From: Felixounavirus AN17P8
Sequence record: OZ035742.1
Reading direction: 5' to 3' (one strand)
DNA: 64,000 nt
Below are positions 4,575 to 48,600 of this stretch, piece after piece. The notes beneath the pieces were generated by a model. That model searched no databases and had not been told where the DNA came from. It saw only the letters and a program-made list of their open reading frames with translations. The first letter of the stretch is position 1. Every line of letters begins with the position of its first letter. A program made the translations under genes and the position numbers.

Positions 4575-4904
4575 TTAGTCTGCCAACCTTAAATTGAAAT
4601 TAACACCAAATTTTTCACATACTTCCAACATATACTCAAGGGAGACATTACCAGTGAGGTGGATTATGTTGGATACACGAGCCTGAGAGATACCACAAAT
4701 TTTAGCAACTTGCTCTTGAGAAAGACCTCTGGATTTAATCTCTCTCTTAAAACGATGTGCAACGAAGTCTCTCATTTCGTCTACATCCATTGGACAAATA
4801 TAACTCTCCATTTCAGCCTCTCTATCAGCCTCCCAATCATCTTGTGGAGCATAAGGGTCAAAAACTTCATTCATCTTTCTTCTTCCGTTTGCGTGAAGTG
4901 TCAA
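4575..4904 (-). CDS. HTH DNA-binding protein
   Basis: C-terminal helix-turn-helix-like LSQEQVAKICGISQARVSNI. Confidence 0.45.
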   Translation of the reverse strand: MTLHANGRRKMNEVFDPYAPQDDWEADREAEMESYICPMDVDEMRDFVAHRFKREIKSRGLSQEQVAKICGISQARVSNIIHLTGNVSLEYMLEVCEKFGVNFNLRLAD

Positions 4905-10185: not shown

Positions 10186-12915
10186 TCAATGTACCTCATA
10201 CCAGCTCTTACCAACCTTTGCTGTACCAGTTACAAGTGTTTCTTTCCTCAAACCTAAGTTTTTTGAAGCTTGTCCATACATCCAGTCAGCAATTGCTTTC
10301 ATATCATGTGTCATACCCTCTGGACATTCCCAACTATTTTCATCGTGATATGCCAGAAGTAACCTTGCTCCGATAGCTGGTTTTCGAGCATTCAGTTTTG
10401 TCAGGCCATCTTCACAGGCTTTTCTTGCTGCTAGGTTGATGGCCTCATTCTGAATCTGTGCTTCCGAACTCATCAGGAGGTAGTTCAGTAGTTTATGTGG
10501 AGATTTGCACCATATCCATGCTCCAGCGACCCTGATATAACCACCTTTAGCAATTGAAGAATTCTTCCCAAAAACCTCTTCCAGAGCCTTTTTAGACGCC
10601 TTAAAATCGGCTTCTAAGCTATCAAGTAACTTCTTAATCTTTGGCAGACGCATATAGTAAGTTTGTTTAGTCAATGCACCTTCTTCCGTAGATGATGCCT
10701 TGATAGTTTTTGCAAACTTCTCGTCTCCGGCTCCAAATAACAGGGCGTAGATGCCATTTTTGCTCTTCTTACGGCCTTTTGTAATCTCGTGAAGAAGTTC
10801 CTCATCCTGTGTCTCCCTACAACGAACAATATCTTCTTCCTTGTTCAGACCAAAGTAAATACTGTTCAGTGTATGCGCATCAGTCCCTGTGTAGACTTCA
10901 TAGAGGTCGTTCTCAGCATCATAACGAAGATACTTGTCAGTTTCTGGATTAAGATACTTATCGAGATGCTTGCAATAGTATCTGCCATCCTCTTGCTTAG
11001 TGAACTCTACTGACTCTTTACCCTCAGTTACTGCTTTAGTGAAGTCTTCATCACCCATAAAGTTACAAAGGAGAACTAGCTGGGCTGAGTTCATATCAAC
11101 GGAGACTACGTTGGTTCCTTCCTCGCAAATCCACACCTCCCTCATAGGCGCTCCATAGACAGCAGCACCAGATGGTACGTTTACAATACCATATTGTGTC
11201 ATACGTCCAGTTGAAGTACCAAACACCATTGCACCAGCACTAAGGCGACCATCAGGACGAATCTGGTTCAACCAACCTTTTTCATCATCTTTTGAGTTCT
11301 CAATAGTTCTGCGTCGGTGCATTAAAGTATAGTACTTAGCAATCTTCTGTCCAAGCTCACCTTCAATCGTATCATAAGATGATTCAGTAAGTTTTGGTGA
11401 AGTACGGATTAAGCAAGGCTCAAGCAAATCTGTGTATTTCTTCACAGACCAGTTATGCTCAATGTACTGTACACCTTCATGTTCAACATAACTCAAACCA
11501 CATCGTTCCACCATTTCCTGCCACTTAGGATGTTTTGTAATCATCTTTTTATTGTCTTTGAAACGACAAACTTTGACAGGGCGACCGTCTGAGTCTTTCT
11601 TGTAGTTCCAGTCATCTGGAATCCAACCAACTGATTTCAAGTAGTCTTTAACAACTGCTACCTGAGTCATACGAGAAACTTCGAACTCAATTGGTGTATA
11701 TGGTGCATCAATCAAACCTGTGTAGCGACTTGACTCAAGTTCAAAGTGGTTAACAACGTGACTGTTATAGTACTTCACAGTTTTGACTGTTTTTACTGGC
11801 TTCCAGTCTTTGCATTTCTTACCAATCTTTGCGTTCAACTCATTGCAAATTGCACGAGCATCCTTCATTGCTACAAAACCTTCCTTGTACTCTTCACCAG
11901 TTACAGTGTTGGTTGGTGTATAGCAATTTCTCTTTTCAATGTTAAAAATCTTTGTAGTTGGCTTACCAAATGGTTTGATTTCGTATGTCTGCATCTCGCC
12001 ATTACGTACCTGCTGACGATACTTTGTCTTAGGGTACTTGGTAATTCTTTTCAGTCCATCTGCATGACCAAATGTTTCAACATACTCATTCCAAGCTTTT
12101 GCAAACTCTTCTCCAGTGACTTTACCTTTGGTCTTAATAGTTGGAGGCAGATGTGGTTCAACCTCTGAAGCAAGCTCATTAGTCAACTTGTCAAGTTCCT
12201 TTACATGGAACTCCATAAGCCCCTTATCAGCTTTCCAACCATTGATAGCTTGTTGACTCATCCAGAAAGATGTTTCTTTAGCTCGCATGTAGGTTTCATA
12301 AGTGTCTATGCCACACTTCTTAAGCTTGAGATACTCATTATCAAGTGCCCGTTTAGTTTTGGCGTTAATACGGATATCTTCTACAACACGAGTGAAGATT
12401 TCTGCATTCCACACACCCCAATGCTCAATCTCTGGCTTACGAACACCAACACGAGCACCCCAAGCAGCCAAGCCATGAGCACCTTTATAACCCTTTGGAG
12501 TTGGTCTATCCATCCACTGAACACGAGACTGGATAAGAGAGTCCTGAAAGAAATTACTCCACGGTTTACACTTTGGATTATCAAAGTTCCATAAATCAGG
12601 TGCAATGTGATTGAAAACCCACCAGTCATAACCGAGACCATTATGGATGCAAAGACGTTTTGCCTTTAACGCAAATTCAACACCTTCACGTAAACCACCC
12701 TTGATGTACTTAGTGTACTTGTGACCGAGGATAGGCTCATCTGTAAAGACCCATACAGGTGGCTCTTCATCGTCAGATTTATAGTCTGCGAAAGCCATTA
12801 CGTGAACTTTAGTGAACTCAAGGAGTAAACCATCAGTTTCTGTATCACCAACCAAATGTAAGTTTTTAAAATCTACGTTTTCCATTTTTACTCCCTCTAA
12901 AATCATTAACCCCAT
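10186..12915 (-). CDS. DNA polymerase, family A, with 3'-5' exonuclease domain
   Basis: Exo motif DTETDGL; pol motif B RKKSKNGIYALLFGAG; motif C YHDE. Confidence 0.9.
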   Translation of the reverse strand: MGLMILEGVKMENVDFKNLHLVGDTETDGLLLEFTKVHVMAFADYKSDDEEPPVWVFTDEPILGHKYTKYIKGGLREGVEFALKAKRLCIHNGLGYDWWVFNHIAPDLWNFDNPKCKPWSNFFQDSLIQSRVQWMDRPTPKGYKGAHGLAAWGARVGVRKPEIEHWGVWNAEIFTRVVEDIRINAKTKRALDNEYLKLKKCGIDTYETYMRAKETSFWMSQQAINGWKADKGLMEFHVKELDKLTNELASEVEPHLPPTIKTKGKVTGEEFAKAWNEYVETFGHADGLKRITKYPKTKYRQQVRNGEMQTYEIKPFGKPTTKIFNIEKRNCYTPTNTVTGEEYKEGFVAMKDARAICNELNAKIGKKCKDWKPVKTVKTVKYYNSHVVNHFELESSRYTGLIDAPYTPIEFEVSRMTQVAVVKDYLKSVGWIPDDWNYKKDSDGRPVKVCRFKDNKKMITKHPKWQEMVERCGLSYVEHEGVQYIEHNWSVKKYTDLLEPCLIRTSPKLTESSYDTIEGELGQKIAKYYTLMHRRRTIENSKDDEKGWLNQIRPDGRLSAGAMVFGTSTGRMTQYGIVNVPSGAAVYGAPMREVWICEEGTNVVSVDMNSAQLVLLCNFMGDEDFTKAVTEGKESVEFTKQEDGRYYCKHLDKYLNPETDKYLRYDAENDLYEVYTGTDAHTLNSIYFGLNKEEDIVRCRETQDEELLHEITKGRKKSKNGIYALLFGAGDEKFAKTIKASSTEEGALTKQTYYMRLPKIKKLLDSLEADFKASKKALEEVFGKNSSIAKGGYIRVAGAWIWCKSPHKLLNYLLMSSEAQIQNEAINLAARKACEDGLTKLNARKPAIGARLLLAYHDENSWECPEGMTHDMKAIADWMYGQASKNLGLRKETLVTGTAKVGKSWYEVH

Positions 12916-12945
12916 ACATTACTGCAAAAAATTATAAAAAGCAAG

Positions 12946-12975
12946 TTGACAATGCACTTGACAAGGTGTTAATCT
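12946..12975 (+). promoter_or_regulatory. sigma70-like promoter in divergent region (tandem TTGACA boxes)
   Basis: gtTGACAatgcacTTGACAaggtg...TAATCT; shares cTTGACAAGGTG with three other promoters. Confidence 0.4.
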
Positions 12976-13142
12976 TTGCGAAGTGGGTTTTTACTTAAAA
13001 GGTTACTTAACAGTTTAGCTATACAGATACTTTAAAACTCTTAAAAGATTATTTAATAGCTTTTAAAAAGCTTTAAAGTATAACGTATAGAATACGTTAA
13101 GATAAAAGATTAAAACTTAATAGTTACTTAAAAGAGGCTTAC

Positions 13143-13565
13143 ATGCAGAAAATGTTTGTTCACCCAGACATAGCTGACTTTGTTAGAGCTTTGCAGAAGT
13201 TGGAAGAACTTGACATTGCTGCTCAACGGGAATATGCTCACCATCACAGGAGAATGGTTGATATACAACATGAAATAGAGTTATCTGAAAACTATGAAGA
13301 TGACTTAAAATGTTCTGTATTTGAGCATATGAAAGATGTTGCTACAGCGAGACGTAAAGCTAAAGACACAGTTGCTTTACTAGATTCTCTTAAAAAGAGG
13401 TTGCAAAGTGGTACAGACCTGTGTAATCTAGCGTCACTGATTAACGATGTTGAAACTTCTTGGGATAGGCACTATTATCCACGTTCTGAAAAGACACTTG
13501 ACTTTTCTTCATCCGAAAACTTAAAATGTTCTAGAAAGAAACTTAACAAACTGAGAGAGAAATAA
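13143..13565 (+). CDS. hypothetical protein
   Basis: First gene of plus-strand block; RBS aagagg. Confidence 0.4.
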   Translation: MQKMFVHPDIADFVRALQKLEELDIAAQREYAHHHRRMVDIQHEIELSENYEDDLKCSVFEHMKDVATARRKAKDTVALLDSLKKRLQSGTDLCNLASLINDVETSWDRHYYPRSEKTLDFSSSENLKCSRKKLNKLREK

Positions 13566-40548: not shown

Positions 40549-40560
40549 GGTTAAGATACA

Positions 40561-40582
40561 GGCTCCTTCGGGAGCCTTTTTC
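40561..40582 (+). terminator. rho-independent terminator
   Basis: GGCTCC-ttcg-GGAGCC-TTTTT. Confidence 0.6.
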
Positions 40583-40600
40583 ATTTCAGGAGATTGTTAA

Positions 40601-40948
40601 ATGACATTTAAAGAGTTCTGTCAAGCTACTTTCATAATTGTTTTCTTAGTTGGTGCAGGTGTCTGGGGAGGATACTCTTACAGAGACTATCAAGTTGCTG
40701 AAACTGAGCTAAACAATCAAAAGCTCATAAGTGTTGCTAAAGATGCTTATCAGGAAGGATTAGTCACACTGAGCACCAATTACAAGAATGATTTGAAAGA
40801 TGTGCTTGCTAAGAATAAGCATACAAAAGAGGTACTAACATATGAAAAAACTAAGCCAGAGTTTTATAATGTTTGTGTTACTGATAACTATGTCAGGGTG
40901 TTCAACGAACAAAGTGAACAGTACATTCAAAAACTCCCAAGTAAGTGA
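40601..40948 (+). CDS. N-terminal TM protein (i-spanin-like architecture)
   Basis: RBS ggag; TM helix FIIVFLVGAGVWGG; 3' end overlaps a lipoprotein gene in another frame. Confidence 0.3.
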   Translation: MTFKEFCQATFIIVFLVGAGVWGGYSYRDYQVAETELNNQKLISVAKDAYQEGLVTLSTNYKNDLKDVLAKNKHTKEVLTYEKTKPEFYNVCVTDNYVRVFNEQSEQYIQKLPSK

Positions 40949-42399: not shown

Positions 42400-43185
42400 A
42401 TGGGTATTGTAAAAATCATCAATGGCGATATCTTTGCCGCATTTGATAAAGGTAAGTTTGACATTATTGGTCACGGTTGCAACTGTATGAATTTAATGGG
42501 TGCAGGTATCGCTGACAAGATTTCTAAACTTTACCCAAAAGCATATGAGACAGATACAGAAGTCTATCTATATGCAGGTGGCATAGGCCACAAACCCTGT
42601 GAAAATTTACTGGGTAATTTCTCTGTAGCACGTTTAAAACAAGGTCGTATAGCTAACCTTTACACTCAGCTTAAGACTGGTAAAGATGCCCGATACAGTG
42701 CTTTAGAGTCATCTTTGAAACAGCTTAACAGATACTGTGAAGTTAACCAGTTGAAGAAGGTTGGTCTACCTATGATTGGTGCAGGTATCGGTGGACTTGA
42801 CCCCCAAGCTGTCACAGTCATCATCAATCAGGTGATGAAGAGTGTAGACGTTTATCTATATGTCTATGAAGGAGAGATGTACCACAAGTTACGCTCAGGT
42901 TGGAAGAACTACTGTGAACCAGAATACTTTGCAGGTGTAGCAGTGTTCACGGATAACGCAGTTACCCTCTTCAGACGAAGAAAAGGTAAGATACATCAAA
43001 GTAACCCTCCGGTTGAAAGGATGTCTCTAAGTAACGCTCTAGTTACCCACCTGTCGAAGAGCAATCACAGAATAGCTGTGACATTTGGTAGTGATGCAGA
43101 TGCTTACATCTATGCAAGAACTGATGAGGATATCGAGGCAATTTTCTCATCACCGGAAGTTACCTTCTTAGACGCAAAGAACTAA
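42400..43185 (+). CDS. macro domain protein (TARG1/DarG-like ADP-ribose hydrolase fold)
   Basis: NGDIF...DIIGHGCNCMNLMGAGIA matches TARG1-type HCISEDCRMGAGIA; second glycine loop GLPMIGAGIGGL; C-terminal ~110-aa extension. Confidence 0.65.
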   Translation: MGIVKIINGDIFAAFDKGKFDIIGHGCNCMNLMGAGIADKISKLYPKAYETDTEVYLYAGGIGHKPCENLLGNFSVARLKQGRIANLYTQLKTGKDARYSALESSLKQLNRYCEVNQLKKVGLPMIGAGIGGLDPQAVTVIINQVMKSVDVYLYVYEGEMYHKLRSGWKNYCEPEYFAGVAVFTDNAVTLFRRRKGKIHQSNPPVERMSLSNALVTHLSKSNHRIAVTFGSDADAYIYARTDEDIEAIFSSPEVTFLDAKN

Positions 43186-43253
43186 GAAACTCTGTAGAAT
43201 ATTCACAATAGACTAAGCCTTTCTTATCTGGTAAATTTTTCAGGTAAGGGGGC

Positions 43254-43438
43254 TTTTTCATTTCAGGATTGTGCAGGTAGAGTTCTGTATAGAAATCTGT
43301 AGAGAAAATTTTGAACTCCAAAGGGAAAATTCATTTTCAAGCTGTGCAGGTAATCTCCAAAGAGCTTTTTCATTTTCAAAACGTGCAGACCCCGCTCAGG
43401 TCGGGCAAGAAAAATCATTTTAGAATCGTGCAGGTAGG
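43254..43438. repeat. four direct repeats TCATTTYnnnnnnGTGCAGGTA
   Basis: Copies at ~43258, 43330, 43368, 43413 with irregular 39-73 bp spacing; between macro-domain gene and cassette. Confidence 0.6.
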
Positions 43439-43621
43439 TGGATGCAGGTGGGGATGTCGCCATTTCTCACAAGGCTACCACATCTGGAAATAAAAGTCAA
43501 CATAAAACTTTGTAGCGGATTGAAAAATAATTCTTGATTGTAGTTCTGTTTTGTGGTAGTCGCGCGCACCCGTTTCATTACAATTTTTGCAAAAAAAAAA
43601 AAAATATTTTTAAAATTCCTA

Positions 43622-43650
43622 TTGACTCTTTGAGTATGGTTATCTAATAT
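43622..43650 (+). promoter_or_regulatory. strong sigma70-like promoter, cassette gene 1
   Basis: TTGACT-N17-TAATAT preceded by a 14-A tract (43591-43604); conserved leader hairpin 43661-43681 follows. Confidence 0.55.
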
Positions 43651-43713
43651 TTGCATCAACGGGGAGGGAATGACCTTCCCCACTAAGTAAAGTCCTAAAC
43701 TGGAGATTCTAAA

Positions 43714-44094
43714 ATGGCATACCGTGCACCTAAATTCATCAATAAAGACAACTTTCGCAACGCACTGGAGAAGTCACTTGATGAGAATTTTAAAGGTAAC
43801 GTTATCGTTGTTCACTCTTTCAATTTCAAGTATGATATCAACGGGAATAAAATCAATCATTACACGGCAACCATGATAGATGGTGCGCTATCAAGTGAAA
43901 AAGCTGTACTAAATGCACTGGCAGGACGTGGAAAGGTTTTAGTAAGATGTGATAAGCGACGTTATCAGGGCGGTGCATATGGTTATGACGATGCTATCTA
44001 TCATCTGGAAAATATGGGCTATCAAGTAGAAAAAGCTGGGGTATCACAAATCATCGGCAGTGATGGCTACGTGACAATCTTCAAAATTAAATAA
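43714..44094 (+). CDS. small protein 1 of promoter-cassette cluster
   Basis: Own promoter TTGACT-N17-TAATAT, 5'UTR hairpin, RBS ggag; 126 aa. Confidence 0.5.
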   Translation: MAYRAPKFINKDNFRNALEKSLDENFKGNVIVVHSFNFKYDINGNKINHYTATMIDGALSSEKAVLNALAGRGKVLVRCDKRRYQGGAYGYDDAIYHLENMGYQVEKAGVSQIIGSDGYVTIFKIK

Positions 44095-44182
44095 AAAGTA
44101 CTTTACAAGGGGCTTATAGTTCGATAAAGTAAGCCCCAGATAAAGAGCTTTACCACTAAATCCTAAATTGGAGAACTTAAAA

Positions 44183-44473: not shown

Positions 44474-44561
44474 TAAAGTACTTTACAGGGGGCTTAAAAG
44501 TTGATATCTTAAGCCCCAGATAAAGAGCTTTACCACTAAATCCTAAACTGGAGATTCAAAA

Positions 44562-45188: not shown

Positions 45189-45422
45189 ATGCTTACAACC
45201 ATTTATCTTATCCTTTCTATTTGTAATGGTCATTTATGTGATTTTAAAGGGCTTGAGGAGTTTACAGGGAGTAAAGAAAATGCTATTCAAGTTTGCCAGA
45301 TAGCAAGACAAGACTATCCCGCCAGTGATGATATTCAATGCTACTTTAAGACAGAAGATGAAGACGGCATTTATTTTGATAGTGTTGACGGTCAATATGA
45401 AATTATCATTGAAAAAGACTAG
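45189..45422 (+). CDS. small protein 4 of cassette cluster
   Basis: 77 aa, hydrophobic N-terminus MLTTIYLILSICNGHLC. Confidence 0.4.
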   Translation: MLTTIYLILSICNGHLCDFKGLEEFTGSKENAIQVCQIARQDYPASDDIQCYFKTEDEDGIYFDSVDGQYEIIIEKD

Positions 45423-45448
45423 ACAAACCTGATAAAAGCTTGTAAATT
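45420..45448 (+). promoter_or_regulatory. sigma70-like promoter, cassette gene 5
   Basis: TAGACA-N17-TAAATT followed by leader gtcaatcaacGGGGAGGGaatgaCCTTCCCC. Confidence 0.5.
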
Positions 45449-45512
45449 GTCAATCAACGGGGAGGGAATGACCTTCCCCACTAAATAAAGTCCTTAAACT
45501 AGGAGATTCAAA

Positions 45513-45984: not shown

Positions 45985-46013
45985 TGCAATCAGATATCAA
46001 AACAAGTAAATTA
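45985..46013 (+). promoter_or_regulatory. sigma70-like promoter, cassette gene 6
   Basis: TTGCAA-N17-TAAATT followed by covarying leader hairpin GGGAGGTaatgACCTCCC. Confidence 0.5.
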
Positions 46014-46073
46014 CTAATCAACGGGAGGTAATGACCTCCCCACTAAATAAAGTCCTAAACTGGAGATTCTAAA

Positions 46074-46604
46074 ATGAACAAGTTCAAAGCTATCAACTAT
46101 ATTCGTTCAAATGCTGTAATGTCAAAGCCTGTAAAAGACACATACGAATTTCGTTGCAATGGGGTACACTTTGCAACCATCACTAAGTCAGAAAACGGGG
46201 CTTATTACGTACATCGTCGTAATGTTGCAACCGTTGTAGTCTCTCACTTTATGCAAGCTGTAGCGGAGTTATTACCGTTATTCTTAGAGATTTATCTAGG
46301 TGAGTGTAAAAACGTTCGTAACCACGTTAAAAACCTTTTAAACGGTTATAAAATGGCTTATGAACGTTCTATCAAGTCCTTAAACAAGTTTTATAAAGCT
46401 CCTGTAAACACTGTTTCAATGGCTTACAGTGTAAGCGGTGAGTTGGTTAGTCTCTTCGAAGTGGAAGAAATCGAACTATATAACTCACGTCCTAGCGGTT
46501 ACTCTAAGACACTAGGAGAGGGCTTATCTTTCAATATCAAGAACTTAGAAAAAACTTTAAAAGATATTGAAAAAGATATTGACGAGACAATCAAAAATCT
46601 GTAA
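46074..46604 (+). CDS. protein 6 of cassette cluster
   Basis: Own promoter TTGCAA-N17-TAAATT, covarying 5'UTR hairpin, RBS ggag. Confidence 0.5.
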   Translation: MNKFKAINYIRSNAVMSKPVKDTYEFRCNGVHFATITKSENGAYYVHRRNVATVVVSHFMQAVAELLPLFLEIYLGECKNVRNHVKNLLNGYKMAYERSIKSLNKFYKAPVNTVSMAYSVSGELVSLFEVEEIELYNSRPSGYSKTLGEGLSFNIKNLEKTLKDIEKDIDETIKNL

Positions 46605-46607
46605 ATT
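46579..46607 (+). promoter_or_regulatory. sigma70-like promoter, cassette gene 7
   Basis: TTGACG-N17-TAAATT embedded in 3' end of gene 6; same leader hairpin. Confidence 0.5.
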
Positions 46608-46683
46608 ACTAATCAACGGGGAGGGAATGACCTTCCCCACTAAATAAAACCCTTAATCAACTTCCTAAACTGGAGATTCTAAA

Positions 46684-46995: not shown

Positions 46996-48600
46996 GTCTA
47001 TCGAATCCTTATACAAACCCTTTCCTTCTCCTTTCTAGAATCTTATCAGACCTTAAAAAGCAATAACTCTATAGCCTACTCTATAGCCTTTTATCAAATC
47101 AGTTTAAATATAAGCCCATAACCCGAAAGGGAAGGGCAACCACTATAACGCTCTATAACGCTCTATAACAGCCTTATCAACCTAACTTAAGCAATCATAT
47201 TAACCCACTCTAAAAAGCCCTTTATAGAGCTTCTTAGAGCCTTAAAAGAATCTTATAAGTGTGTAAGCTTTATCATCTCGTTAGTTATCTTGTGAACTAC
47301 TAAAAAGGGCTTGTTATTGTCTTAAAAGTATGTTATAGGGGCTATGAAGTTACTTTGAAGTAGCTTAAAAGTTACGTAAATGCTAGCCCCCTTAACATTT
47401 TCTTAACAATTTCTTAACAAATTCTACATAGTTATGCTTGTTAGAGACTTGTTAGCCTCTTGTTAAATCTCTGTTAAGACCACGTAAAAGCCTTGTAAGA
47501 GTCTTTGGCATAGCCTTCAAAGCTCCTGTAAAGCCCTATAAAGAGCTATCCGTACAGTTGAGGGGTAAATACTAGGGAGAGACTTAAAAGAGCCTATAAA
47601 GAGCTATAGAGAGCTTTTAAAAGGTATGTTTAAAGAATCACTAAGAAAGGAAAGGGAATGATAAGAAAGAAGAGTTGTGTTTGTAAACAACCACTGTGAC
47701 CATGTTAATAGCTTGTTAAAAAGATTAAACACTTGTTAGAAACTTGTTAATTATCTTAACAAAATAACTTTTTAAAATTAACTATATAACTCTTGTTAGT
47801 CATCTGTTAAGCATCTGTAAAGACTATTCAGCACTTGTTAGAAAACTGTTAAGCTCTTGTTAGTTCTGTTAAGAATCTGCTAAGACCTTTGAAGAGTTGT
47901 TAAGAAGATGTGAGAACTGTTAAGAGATTGTTAAGGATATTTTAAAATTCTGCAAAGTACTTGTAAGGGAGCTGTTAAGGGCTACCAAGCAGATATACAT
48001 CTTCTACAGATATTTTTCAGTTCCTTCAAAGACCCTAAAAAATGACTTGATAGTCCTATTTTATAAAAATTTTAAAATTCTGAATAATTACCTATACAGT
48101 CTTTTAAAAATACAGGTAGAAACAGGCTTATAAGATACCTTGTTAGTACCGTGTTAGACCTTGTGAGATAAGGTCTGTAAAGATATTCCTGTTAAGTTTG
48201 TTAAAACAGTCTATATAGAGGCTTAGTAATACCTAGTGAACACCTATAGAGGGTGTCATAGCTGACATAATGGGTTACTGTTAAGTAACACAGATAACCT
48301 AGAGATTAAGAGGTGTATAGGGGCTTCTAAGAGTGTGTAGAGAGATGGTTAAGGTGATTGTATAGGCTGTTAAGAAGGCTTGTTAGAAGAGTGTTTAGAA
48401 GGTTTGTTAGAGGGCTAGTTAGAAGGGTTATACAGAGGGGCTATTAAGACCACTAGATAATTACTAAGATACTATATAGTACTATATAACTATATAGAGA
48501 GTAAGATTAAGAAGGTTGTTAAGAAGGGTAGATATTTTATTCACATATGATGGTGACCCAGAGGTTGGGACAACCGATAAAATTTTATAAAAATTAAAAA
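46996..48600. repeat. non-coding iteron-rich region (YTTGTTAR/CTGTTAAG, ~12-bp phasing)
   Basis: More than 30 copies of TTGTTAG/TTGTTAA/CTGTTAAG, several runs at 11-12 bp periodicity; also CTCTATAACG x3 and TATAAAGAGCT repeats; no ORF over 60 aa. Confidence 0.7.

Follow-up and report, generated by a model that had tools for sequence, protein, structure and literature searches.

A deeply conserved array of four direct repeats, putative protein-binding sites, upstream of the early-gene cassette of a Felix O1-like phage

Locus organization

The array of direct repeats described here is located in a non-coding gap of the genome of a Felix O1-like myophage (Felixounavirus), such phages having Escherichia and Salmonella as hosts. 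Within the window, i.e. the whole stretch of 64,000 nucleotides (64 kb) that was analyzed, this gap separates a macro-domain gene and its strong terminator from a series of small genes. Felix O1 is a classic phage of diagnostics and biocontrol; among coliphages and Salmonella phages, its relatives belong to those isolated most often. The 2.1 kb surrounding the array matched 232 phage records at 90-95 % identity, nearly all of them Felixounavirus. GATC is completely absent from the window (0 sites in 1-64000 vs 184 expected from dinucleotide-preserving shuffles), reflecting a striking avoidance of Dam/MboI/Sau3AI sites. The main features of the locus are as follows.

42400-43185, macro-domain 'phosphatase' gene (Pfam Macro), upstream of the gap
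43186-43713, non-coding gap of 528 bp, bounded by the macro-domain gene (with strong terminator) and by the first of the small early genes
43219-43258, + strand, intrinsic terminator of the macro-domain gene (13-pair hairpin at 43219-43252 plus CTTTTT tail; terminator scan)
43714 onward, first small cassette gene, downstream of the gap, heading a series of small genes without known function
43622-43713, 44100-44182, 44480-44561, 45420-45512, 46000-46073 and 46600-46683, cassette modules of promoter, hairpin and ribosome site

The terminator at 43219-43258 is t13 of Felix O1, with a dG of -21.8 kcal/mol the most stable in Table 2 of that study (PMC3185647). Its T tail overlaps the first repeat and doubles as the A/T flank of the latter. 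The array occupies the inner border of the small early-gene block, between the main genome and a terminal cassette of 4-6 kb (4.0 kb in the window, 6.2 kb in phage E9). Each of the cassette genes is preceded by one of two promoter/hairpin/ribosome-site modules, e.g. ATCAACGGGGAGGGAATGACCTTCCCCACTAAATAAAGTCCTAAACTGGAGATTCTAAA.

The direct-repeat array

The repeated unit comprises about 26 bases and is present in four same-direction copies within 43254-43437.

43254-43280, + strand, repeat 1, TTTTT-TCATTTC-AGGATT-GTGCAGGTAG, position kept in all aligned relatives
43326-43353, + strand, repeat 2, AAAAT-TCATTTT-CAAGCT-GTGCAGGTAA
43366-43391, + strand, repeat 3, TTTT-TCATTTT-CAAAAC-GTGCAGACC, variant 3' end
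43410-43437, + strand, repeat 4, AAAAA-TCATTTT-AGAATC-GTGCAGGTAG

Matches to TCATTTYN6GTGCAG were detected at 43258, 43331, 43370 and 43415, all on the + strand (4 observed vs 0.27 expected), a count reached in none of 100 shuffles. No further copy was detected in the 64-kb window, even with one mismatch, and a tighter version of the repeat motif, allowing up to three mismatches, yielded background matches only outside the array; a dispersed promoter motif was rejected, as the genome holds no additional motif copies. The preliminary description of this DNA had listed four copies of TCATTTYnnnnnnGTGCAGGTA. Four cores in one direction are indeed present, but copy 3 ends in GTGCAGACC instead of the GTGCAGGTA found in copies 1, 2 and 4. 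The extra GGTGGATGCAGGTGGGG reported 3' of the last copy was likewise recovered (43437-43453) and includes one more 3' half-site, ATGCAGGTGGGG.

A logo of 156 repeat units reads [A5 or T5]-TCATTTY-(c/a)AAntY-GTGCAGgta, with two near-invariant half-sites and variable bases between them, the cores CATTT and TGCA having been preset by the search pattern that gathered these units. 5' of the first half-site, units have A5 or T5; on duplex DNA, unlike on RNA, these two flanks are equivalent. Start-to-start spacing amounts to 73/39/45 bp in Felixounavirus, 75/41/45 bp in Mooglevirus and 37/37/39 bp in Kolesnikvirus, and these distances do not keep the copies on one face of the helix; copies 1, 2 and 4 alone are roughly in phase.

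Conservation among relatives

In 15 aligned gaps of Felixounavirus and Mooglevirus, the latter represented by Citrobacter and Shigella phages, the four repeats occupy identical offsets. Column conservation in this alignment ranges from 0.96 to 0.99 for the repeat cores and from 0.66 to 0.8 for the spacers. Repeat 2 is absent from pSJ21 and phiWec174 and mutated in VpaE1. For Erwinia phage phiEa104 (Kolesnikvirus), an unbiased repeat search retrieved four copies of TTTTTCATTTTCAATTTGTGCATAG at the syntenic spot (spacing 37, 37 and 39 bp), 3' of the macro gene and its terminator. The macro protein of this phage is just 45 % identical to that of the window, and the array is the sole part of its gap with nucleotide similarity to Felixounavirus.

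Scanning IMG/VR with the repeat pattern added about 35 further Ounavirinae arrays as well as one in the divergent 88-kb contig L042 (IMGVR_UViG_3300045988_063805), the proteins of which are 40-58 % identical to those of the window. There the array is again located 3' of the macro gene, with about five copies of AAAATTCATTTTAAAAACGTGCATAGG on the minus strand at 600-1010, about 0.8-1.0 kb from the contig end, and is directly followed by about 170 bp dense in TTAACA motifs, like the terminal repeat of Felixounavirus. The repeats had been expected to recur in relatives if they were relevant, and they are retained in Felixounavirus, Mooglevirus, Kolesnikvirus and L042. A scan of 185,579 bacterial genomes retrieved no such array and only unrelated repeats (including a coding repeat of Pantoea), and the idea that the phage had copied a regulatory site from a host chromosome was rejected on these grounds; a metagenome scan yielded only further Felixounavirus copies and unrelated repeats. 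No description of the array was found in the Felix O1, wV8 and UAB_Phi87 papers or in the literature on iterons or the origin in Felix O1, and nothing on the gap at 43186-43713 was found in the Bas63 knockout study.

Identities rejected for the array

The array is not the terminal repeat of the genome. The 608-bp terminal repeat of UAB_Phi87 was mapped experimentally (PMC4837284, Fig. S1) and aligns at 47394-47988 (77.6 % identity), 4.0 kb downstream of the array in the window, not at the array itself. In phage E9, an exact repeat of 580 bp closes both ends of the record, with the array 6.2 kb from the right copy. The segment at 47394-47988 holds 16 of the 106 TTAACA/TGTTAA sites of the window and lies in its lowest-GC kilobase (0.336).

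A small protein gene was rejected as well, since none of the four overlapping ORFs keeps frame, start codon and length in relatives. The short 'hypothetical proteins' placed over the array in public records differ in strand and position between records, and none of them is conserved. The annotated ORFs in question are listed below by record.

L001, 3373-3537, wV8 gp13
L004, 1616-1840, annotated ORF over the array
L011, 960-1238, annotated ORF over the array
L015, 1079-1234, annotated ORF over the array

Several of the 'hypothetical protein' genes annotated over the array, among them wV8 gp13, Moogle gp115 and Sf13 gp58, are thus probably spurious, i.e. mis-annotations rather than genes.

A structured RNA is not indicated, the folding z-score of 0.26 being no better than that of shuffles. 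Alifold consensus structures are weak on both strands (covariation terms of -1.19 and -0.23 kcal/mol), and an Rfam search of the region matched no family. Curvature by phased A-tracts was rejected in view of an AA/TT periodicity that ranks at the window's 65th and 32nd percentiles. Consensus sites for DnaA (TTWTNCACA), IHF (WATCAANNNNTTR) and Fis gave no match in 43186-43713, DnaA and IHF having been searched on both strands; comparison by eye with the marbox, sigma-54, sigma-E, Fur and CRP consensus suggested no consistent fit. Chi-like protection from RecBCD was also dismissed: the conserved core is not Chi-like, GCAGGTGG in one allele of the adjoining segment (allele A, see below) is one base off Chi, and the window contains no true Chi site.

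Remainder of the gap and the first cassette promoter

Downstream of repeat 4, the gap continues with the following elements.

43438-43488, + strand, variable segment, allele A, G-rich, with the extra half-site ATGCAGGTGGGG at 43442-43453 (alignment and allele survey)
43489-43557, + strand, A/T-rich block, AAAAGTCAA...TTGAAAAATAATTCTTGAYT...CTGTTTT, column conservation 0.89-0.96 in Felixounavirus and Mooglevirus
43500-43495 (TTGACT), N17, 43477-43472 (TAGCCT), - strand, promoter-like site, allele A only, by eye
43534-43539 (TTGATT), N17, 43557-43562 (TAGTCG), + strand, weak promoter-like site in the A/T block, by eye
43561-43572, + strand, GC-rich 12-mer CGCGCGCACCCG, including CGCGCGCA
43591-43604, + strand, A14 homopolymer, the only A/T run of at least 10 in the window
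43600-43621, + strand, UP-element-like A/T stretch AAAAATATTTTTAAAATTCCTA, directly upstream of the -35 box
43622-43650, + strand, sigma-70-type promoter of the first cassette gene, TTGACT (43622)-17-TAATAT (43645)

The survey of the variable segment covered 36 distinct arrays and distinguished two unrelated alleles. Allele A, which is G-rich and carries the GTGCAGGTGG half-site, is found in the window genome and about 15 others, and allele B, a C-rich polypyrimidine tract (CCCCTCTCCCCCTCTTACTCCCCC), in the other relatives. Allele B is probably ancestral, because all Mooglevirus and Kolesnikvirus carry it. The segment thus represents a recombination mosaic inside a conserved non-coding region. 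Neither of the two promoter-like sites noted by eye at the A/T block was reported by the promoter scan.

The octamer CGCGCGCA (43561-43568) had been regarded as highly atypical for this AT-rich genome and as a possible nicking or recognition site. It does contain the sole CGCGCG of the 64 kb, but at least one CGCGCG occurs in 41 of 100 dinucleotide-preserving shuffles, so that a single occurrence is within chance. At the same position, relatives have CGTGTGCG, TGCGTACA, CGCATACG and others, and the homologous 12-mer reads CGTGTGCGCACG, TGCGTACACGCG, CGCATACGTGCG, CTTGCGCACCCG and others, remaining GC-rich with mostly transitions and being less conserved than its flanks. With this variability and the chance-level count, a nick or recognition site is not supported; CGCGCGCA is one variant of a loosely conserved GC-rich 12-mer and a minor feature.

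The A14 tract is uninterrupted, as previously stated, but does not abut the -35 box TTGACT (43622-43627), from which it is separated by the 17 nt TATTTTTAAAATTCCTA. It is confined to the window genome; at least 35 relatives have A4-A6 and one outlier has A1. Compared with the A5 of relatives, A14 is an expansion by nine bases, which shifts the upstream DNA by nearly one helical turn and creates a promoter-like TTGCAA (43587)-N18-TAAAAT (43616). Any function of A14 would be strain-specific, and a sequencing artefact could be the alternative.

The UP-element consensus is reportedly NNAAAWWTWTTTTNNNAAANNN, as given by Estrem et al. in 1998. In the form AAAWWTWTTTTNNNAAA, the UP consensus is matched with a single mismatch by AAAAATATTTTTAAAAT at 43600-43616, within a stretch that is A/T-rich, lies at about -59 to -38 and directly adjoins the -35 box. 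AAAAATATTTTTAAAA, TTGAC and the TATTTGCATC start region are kept in Felixounavirus and Mooglevirus, and the promoter is followed by the invariant TATTTGCATC, a hairpin in the 5'UTR (43661-43681) and the start codon at 43714. The conserved AAAAATATTTTTAAAA is a predicted UP-element-like stretch serving the TTGACT-17-TAATAT early promoter, separate from the repeats, and A14 is a minor, strain-specific extension of its upstream edge. The likeness to an UP element of the rrnB P1 type consists in the conserved one-mismatch consensus directly upstream of the TTGACT -35 box, and the difference in the nine extra bases at the upstream edge, which are particular to this genome. With regard to the UP-element-like A tract formerly proposed, the A/T stretch next to the -35 box matches the consensus, and A14 itself is not a conserved feature. 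The more general proposal of a regulatory region agrees well with the present data: the region is a control region that is non-coding, conserved and placed shortly before the first cassette promoter.

Possible function of the array

The repeats are no product of chance, are confined to one locus of the genome, neither code for protein nor show structure as RNA, and keep their sequence, number, order and direction across the phage subfamily. Their interpretation as repeated, putative protein-binding sites, already put forward in the preliminary description, gains from this deep conservation. Invariant half-sites, an A5/T5 flank, confinement to a single locus and the kept copy number, order and direction argue for recognition of duplex DNA by a protein, and we infer binding of such a protein at the repeats. 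On balance, we regard it as somewhat probable that the four repeats constitute a cis-acting, iteron-like recognition array on duplex DNA for a sequence-specific, putative protein.

The cognate binding protein would probably be phage-encoded. Each site is asymmetric and of two parts, consisting of five A or T, TCATTTY, about six loosely constrained bases and GTGCAGGTA; with its half-sites about one helical turn apart, it covers two successive major grooves. As all sites point in one direction, the bound proteins would form a polar nucleoprotein complex, which would sit directly past the strongest terminator of the long rightward operon, at the inner border of the small early-gene block occupying the final 4-6 kb up to the right terminal repeat. 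Our leading guess, itself tentative, is that this complex, like one formed on iterons, may mark an origin of replication or some other organising site proximal to the genome end. Slightly more doubtful still is the specific proposal that the array is the site of an Ounavirinae DNA-binding protein and defines either a replication origin or a checkpoint on use of the leading end at the border of the early block. If true, the array would define the origin of replication in Felix O1-like phages, an origin never mapped so far, or a border checkpoint controlling the use of the leading end of the genome after entry.

An origin is consistent with direct asymmetric repeats at one locus only and with an A/T-rich block and promoters close by. 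Against it stand the spacing of the array, which is not in helical register, the lack of matches to DnaA, IHF and Fis consensus sites in the gap, and the dispensability of repeat 2 in natural isolates. As to an A/T-rich DNA-unwinding element beside the repeats, the DNA directly adjoining the array is G-rich (allele A) or C-rich (allele B), and the least stable stretch of the gap (43572-43650, 99.7th percentile) is located at least 135 bp from repeat 4 and is inflated by A14. Replication of T7 starts from promoters, not from iterons. The replisome of Felix O1 is T7-like (PMC3185647). Also contrary to an origin at the array, the GC-skew minimum and the least stable DNA coincide with a divergent region at about 13.0 kb, beside the DNA polymerase gene. 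This intergenic region (12890-13144), which contains the least stable DNA of the window and the cumulative GC-skew minimum, carries repeats of the CTTAAAAG type and a 27-nt near-palindrome, and is a candidate origin by classical criteria.

With respect to the binding protein, Pfam and PHROG searches of the ten flanking ORFs revealed no DNA-binding domain (including Rep/O-like ones), and the annotation of the complete phage E9 genome likewise lists no initiator of the Rep/O type, which counts against an origin. The sole transcriptional regulator annotated in relatives is an XRE-type helix-turn-helix ORF, the product of which is a candidate binder for the array.

4575-4904, - strand, ORF of 109 aa, C-terminal part (…LSQEQVAKICGISQARVSNIIHLTG…) resembling an XRE/Cro-type helix-turn-helix

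XRE-type regulators usually bind palindromes.

The main rival to a replication or organising site, which we hold to be unlikely, is a transcription boundary or operator, where a phage regulator acts on four sites past t13. Such a regulator could stop or modulate transcripts reading through from the long upstream operon to the early cassette, or act by looping on the first early promoter, as a repressor or an activator, and would help to turn early genes off or on. The array indeed has the strongest terminator on one side and the first cassette promoter on the other, repeat 1 overlaps the T tail of the terminator, the phage encodes an XRE-type regulator, and on the + strand the probably ancestral allele B beside the array is rich in C and poor in G. 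A C-rich, G-poor tract has the look of a Rho loading site. Furthermore, the mechanism of transcription timing in Felix O1 has not been established (PMC3185647). However, 185-365 bp separate the sites from the -35 box downstream, helix-turn-helix dimers seldom recognize direct asymmetric repeats, and the other five or six cassette promoters are devoid of such sites, the motif being found nowhere else in the window. Since several targets would be expected of a regulator of early transcription, this restriction to a single locus counts against an operator. A function at the genome end, namely a packaging landmark recognized by terminase or a pause or anchor of DNA entry comparable to the injection stop signal of T5, tied to the right terminal repeat, is improbable. 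It would accord with the mapped UAB_Phi87 terminal repeat falling 4.0 kb downstream (47394-47988), with the 6.2 kb between the array of phage E9 and the right copy of the exact 580-bp end repeat, and with the array of L042 abutting a stretch rich in TTAACA, a motif concentrated in the terminal repeat of the window. No small terminase subunit was recognized in Felix O1 (PMC3185647), and T5, too, possesses highly conserved untranslated repeats beside poorly conserved early ORFs (bioRxiv 10.1101/866236). The distance between array and terminal repeat, which varies between 4.0 and 6.2 kb, nevertheless misfits precise end cutting, the terminal repeat has dense repeats of its own, and the gap contains no DnaA boxes. 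For Felix O1-like phages, no report of two-step DNA entry was found in the searchable literature.

Very improbable is an evolutionary relic, in which the units would be decayed duplications of a terminator tail and an intercistronic junction with no present function. The 5' half TTTTTCATTT also forms the tail of the terminator at 40577, where 15 bases (TTTTTCATTTCAGGA) are identical to repeat 1, and ctttttcattt forms the end of both t5 and t13 in Felix O1 (PMC3185647). The terminator at 40577 extends over 40560-40603 (GGCTCCTTCGGGAGCC) and the bases shared with repeat 1 belong to its tail, TTTTTCATTTCAGGAGATTGTTAAATG. A terminator tail may have given rise to the 5' half of the motif; yet half-sites, copy number, order and direction are kept across lineages with 40-58 % protein identity, while the spacers drift. 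We give least credence to an RNA-level element on either strand, such as a small RNA, a sponge or a leader structure. By eye, allele A offers a promoter-like TTGACT-N17-TGgTAGCCT on the minus strand, directed leftward through the array, but its -10 is not kept in allele B. The z-score of 0.26, the weak consensus structures with almost no covariation and the lack of an Rfam match speak against RNA as well, and an alternation of A5 and T5 flanks would make no sense for RNA. Be it as the favoured protein-recognition array or in another role, the locus provides a cheap and concrete handle on the origin, the packaging signal and small terminase, or the transcription timing of Felix O1.

Comparison with known systems

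Promoter-early stem-loop (PeSL) modules are said to have been described for T4-type phages by Arbiol et al. in 2010. PeSL units shuffle early genes in these phages. The cassette downstream of the array resembles them in its repeated promoter/hairpin/ribosome-site modules between small variable genes; the likeness concerns the cassette and not the four-repeat array, which itself is devoid of promoter and hairpin. The R-sites of lambda cosB and the pac boxes of SPP1 share with the array several short repeated protein-binding sites (putative ones in the present case) near a genome end. Those sites are within about 200 bp of the cut, in contrast to the 4-6 kb and variable distance observed here, but the array of L042 nonetheless abuts a terminal-repeat-like stretch.

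The injection stop region of T5 is similar with regard to its non-coding repeats at the inner edge of a terminal block, its small early genes with strong host-type promoters, and the far better conservation of these repeats compared with the adjacent ORFs. The untranslated repeats forming the T5 stop signal comprise inverted repeats, palindromes and eight DnaA boxes inside a terminal repeat of about 10 kb (bioRxiv 10.1101/866236). Conserved non-coding repeats at the inner edge of a terminal early block are a property of the array, too, whereas paired DnaA boxes in inverted repeats within a long terminal repeat are not: the array is made up of direct repeats, no DnaA box is present, and the terminal repeat, of about 0.6 kb, lies 4 kb away. 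The likeness to T5 covers position and pattern of conservation only, and entry control by the array is speculation.

From lambda ori and plasmid iterons (R6K, pSC101, P1, F), the array differs by irregular rather than regular helical spacing, by G- or C-rich adjoining DNA, and in that neither a cognate initiator gene nor DnaA/IHF boxes were found. The resemblance to these systems resides in the direct repeats of about 20 bp (three to five in the known systems) in one orientation at one locus, matching the iteron pattern of at least three such repeats of about 17-22 bp, in the two conserved halves per repeat about one helical turn apart, and in the nearby A/T-rich region and promoters. The array is a real, deeply conserved cis element of a familiar kind, and it is novel with respect to the searchable literature.
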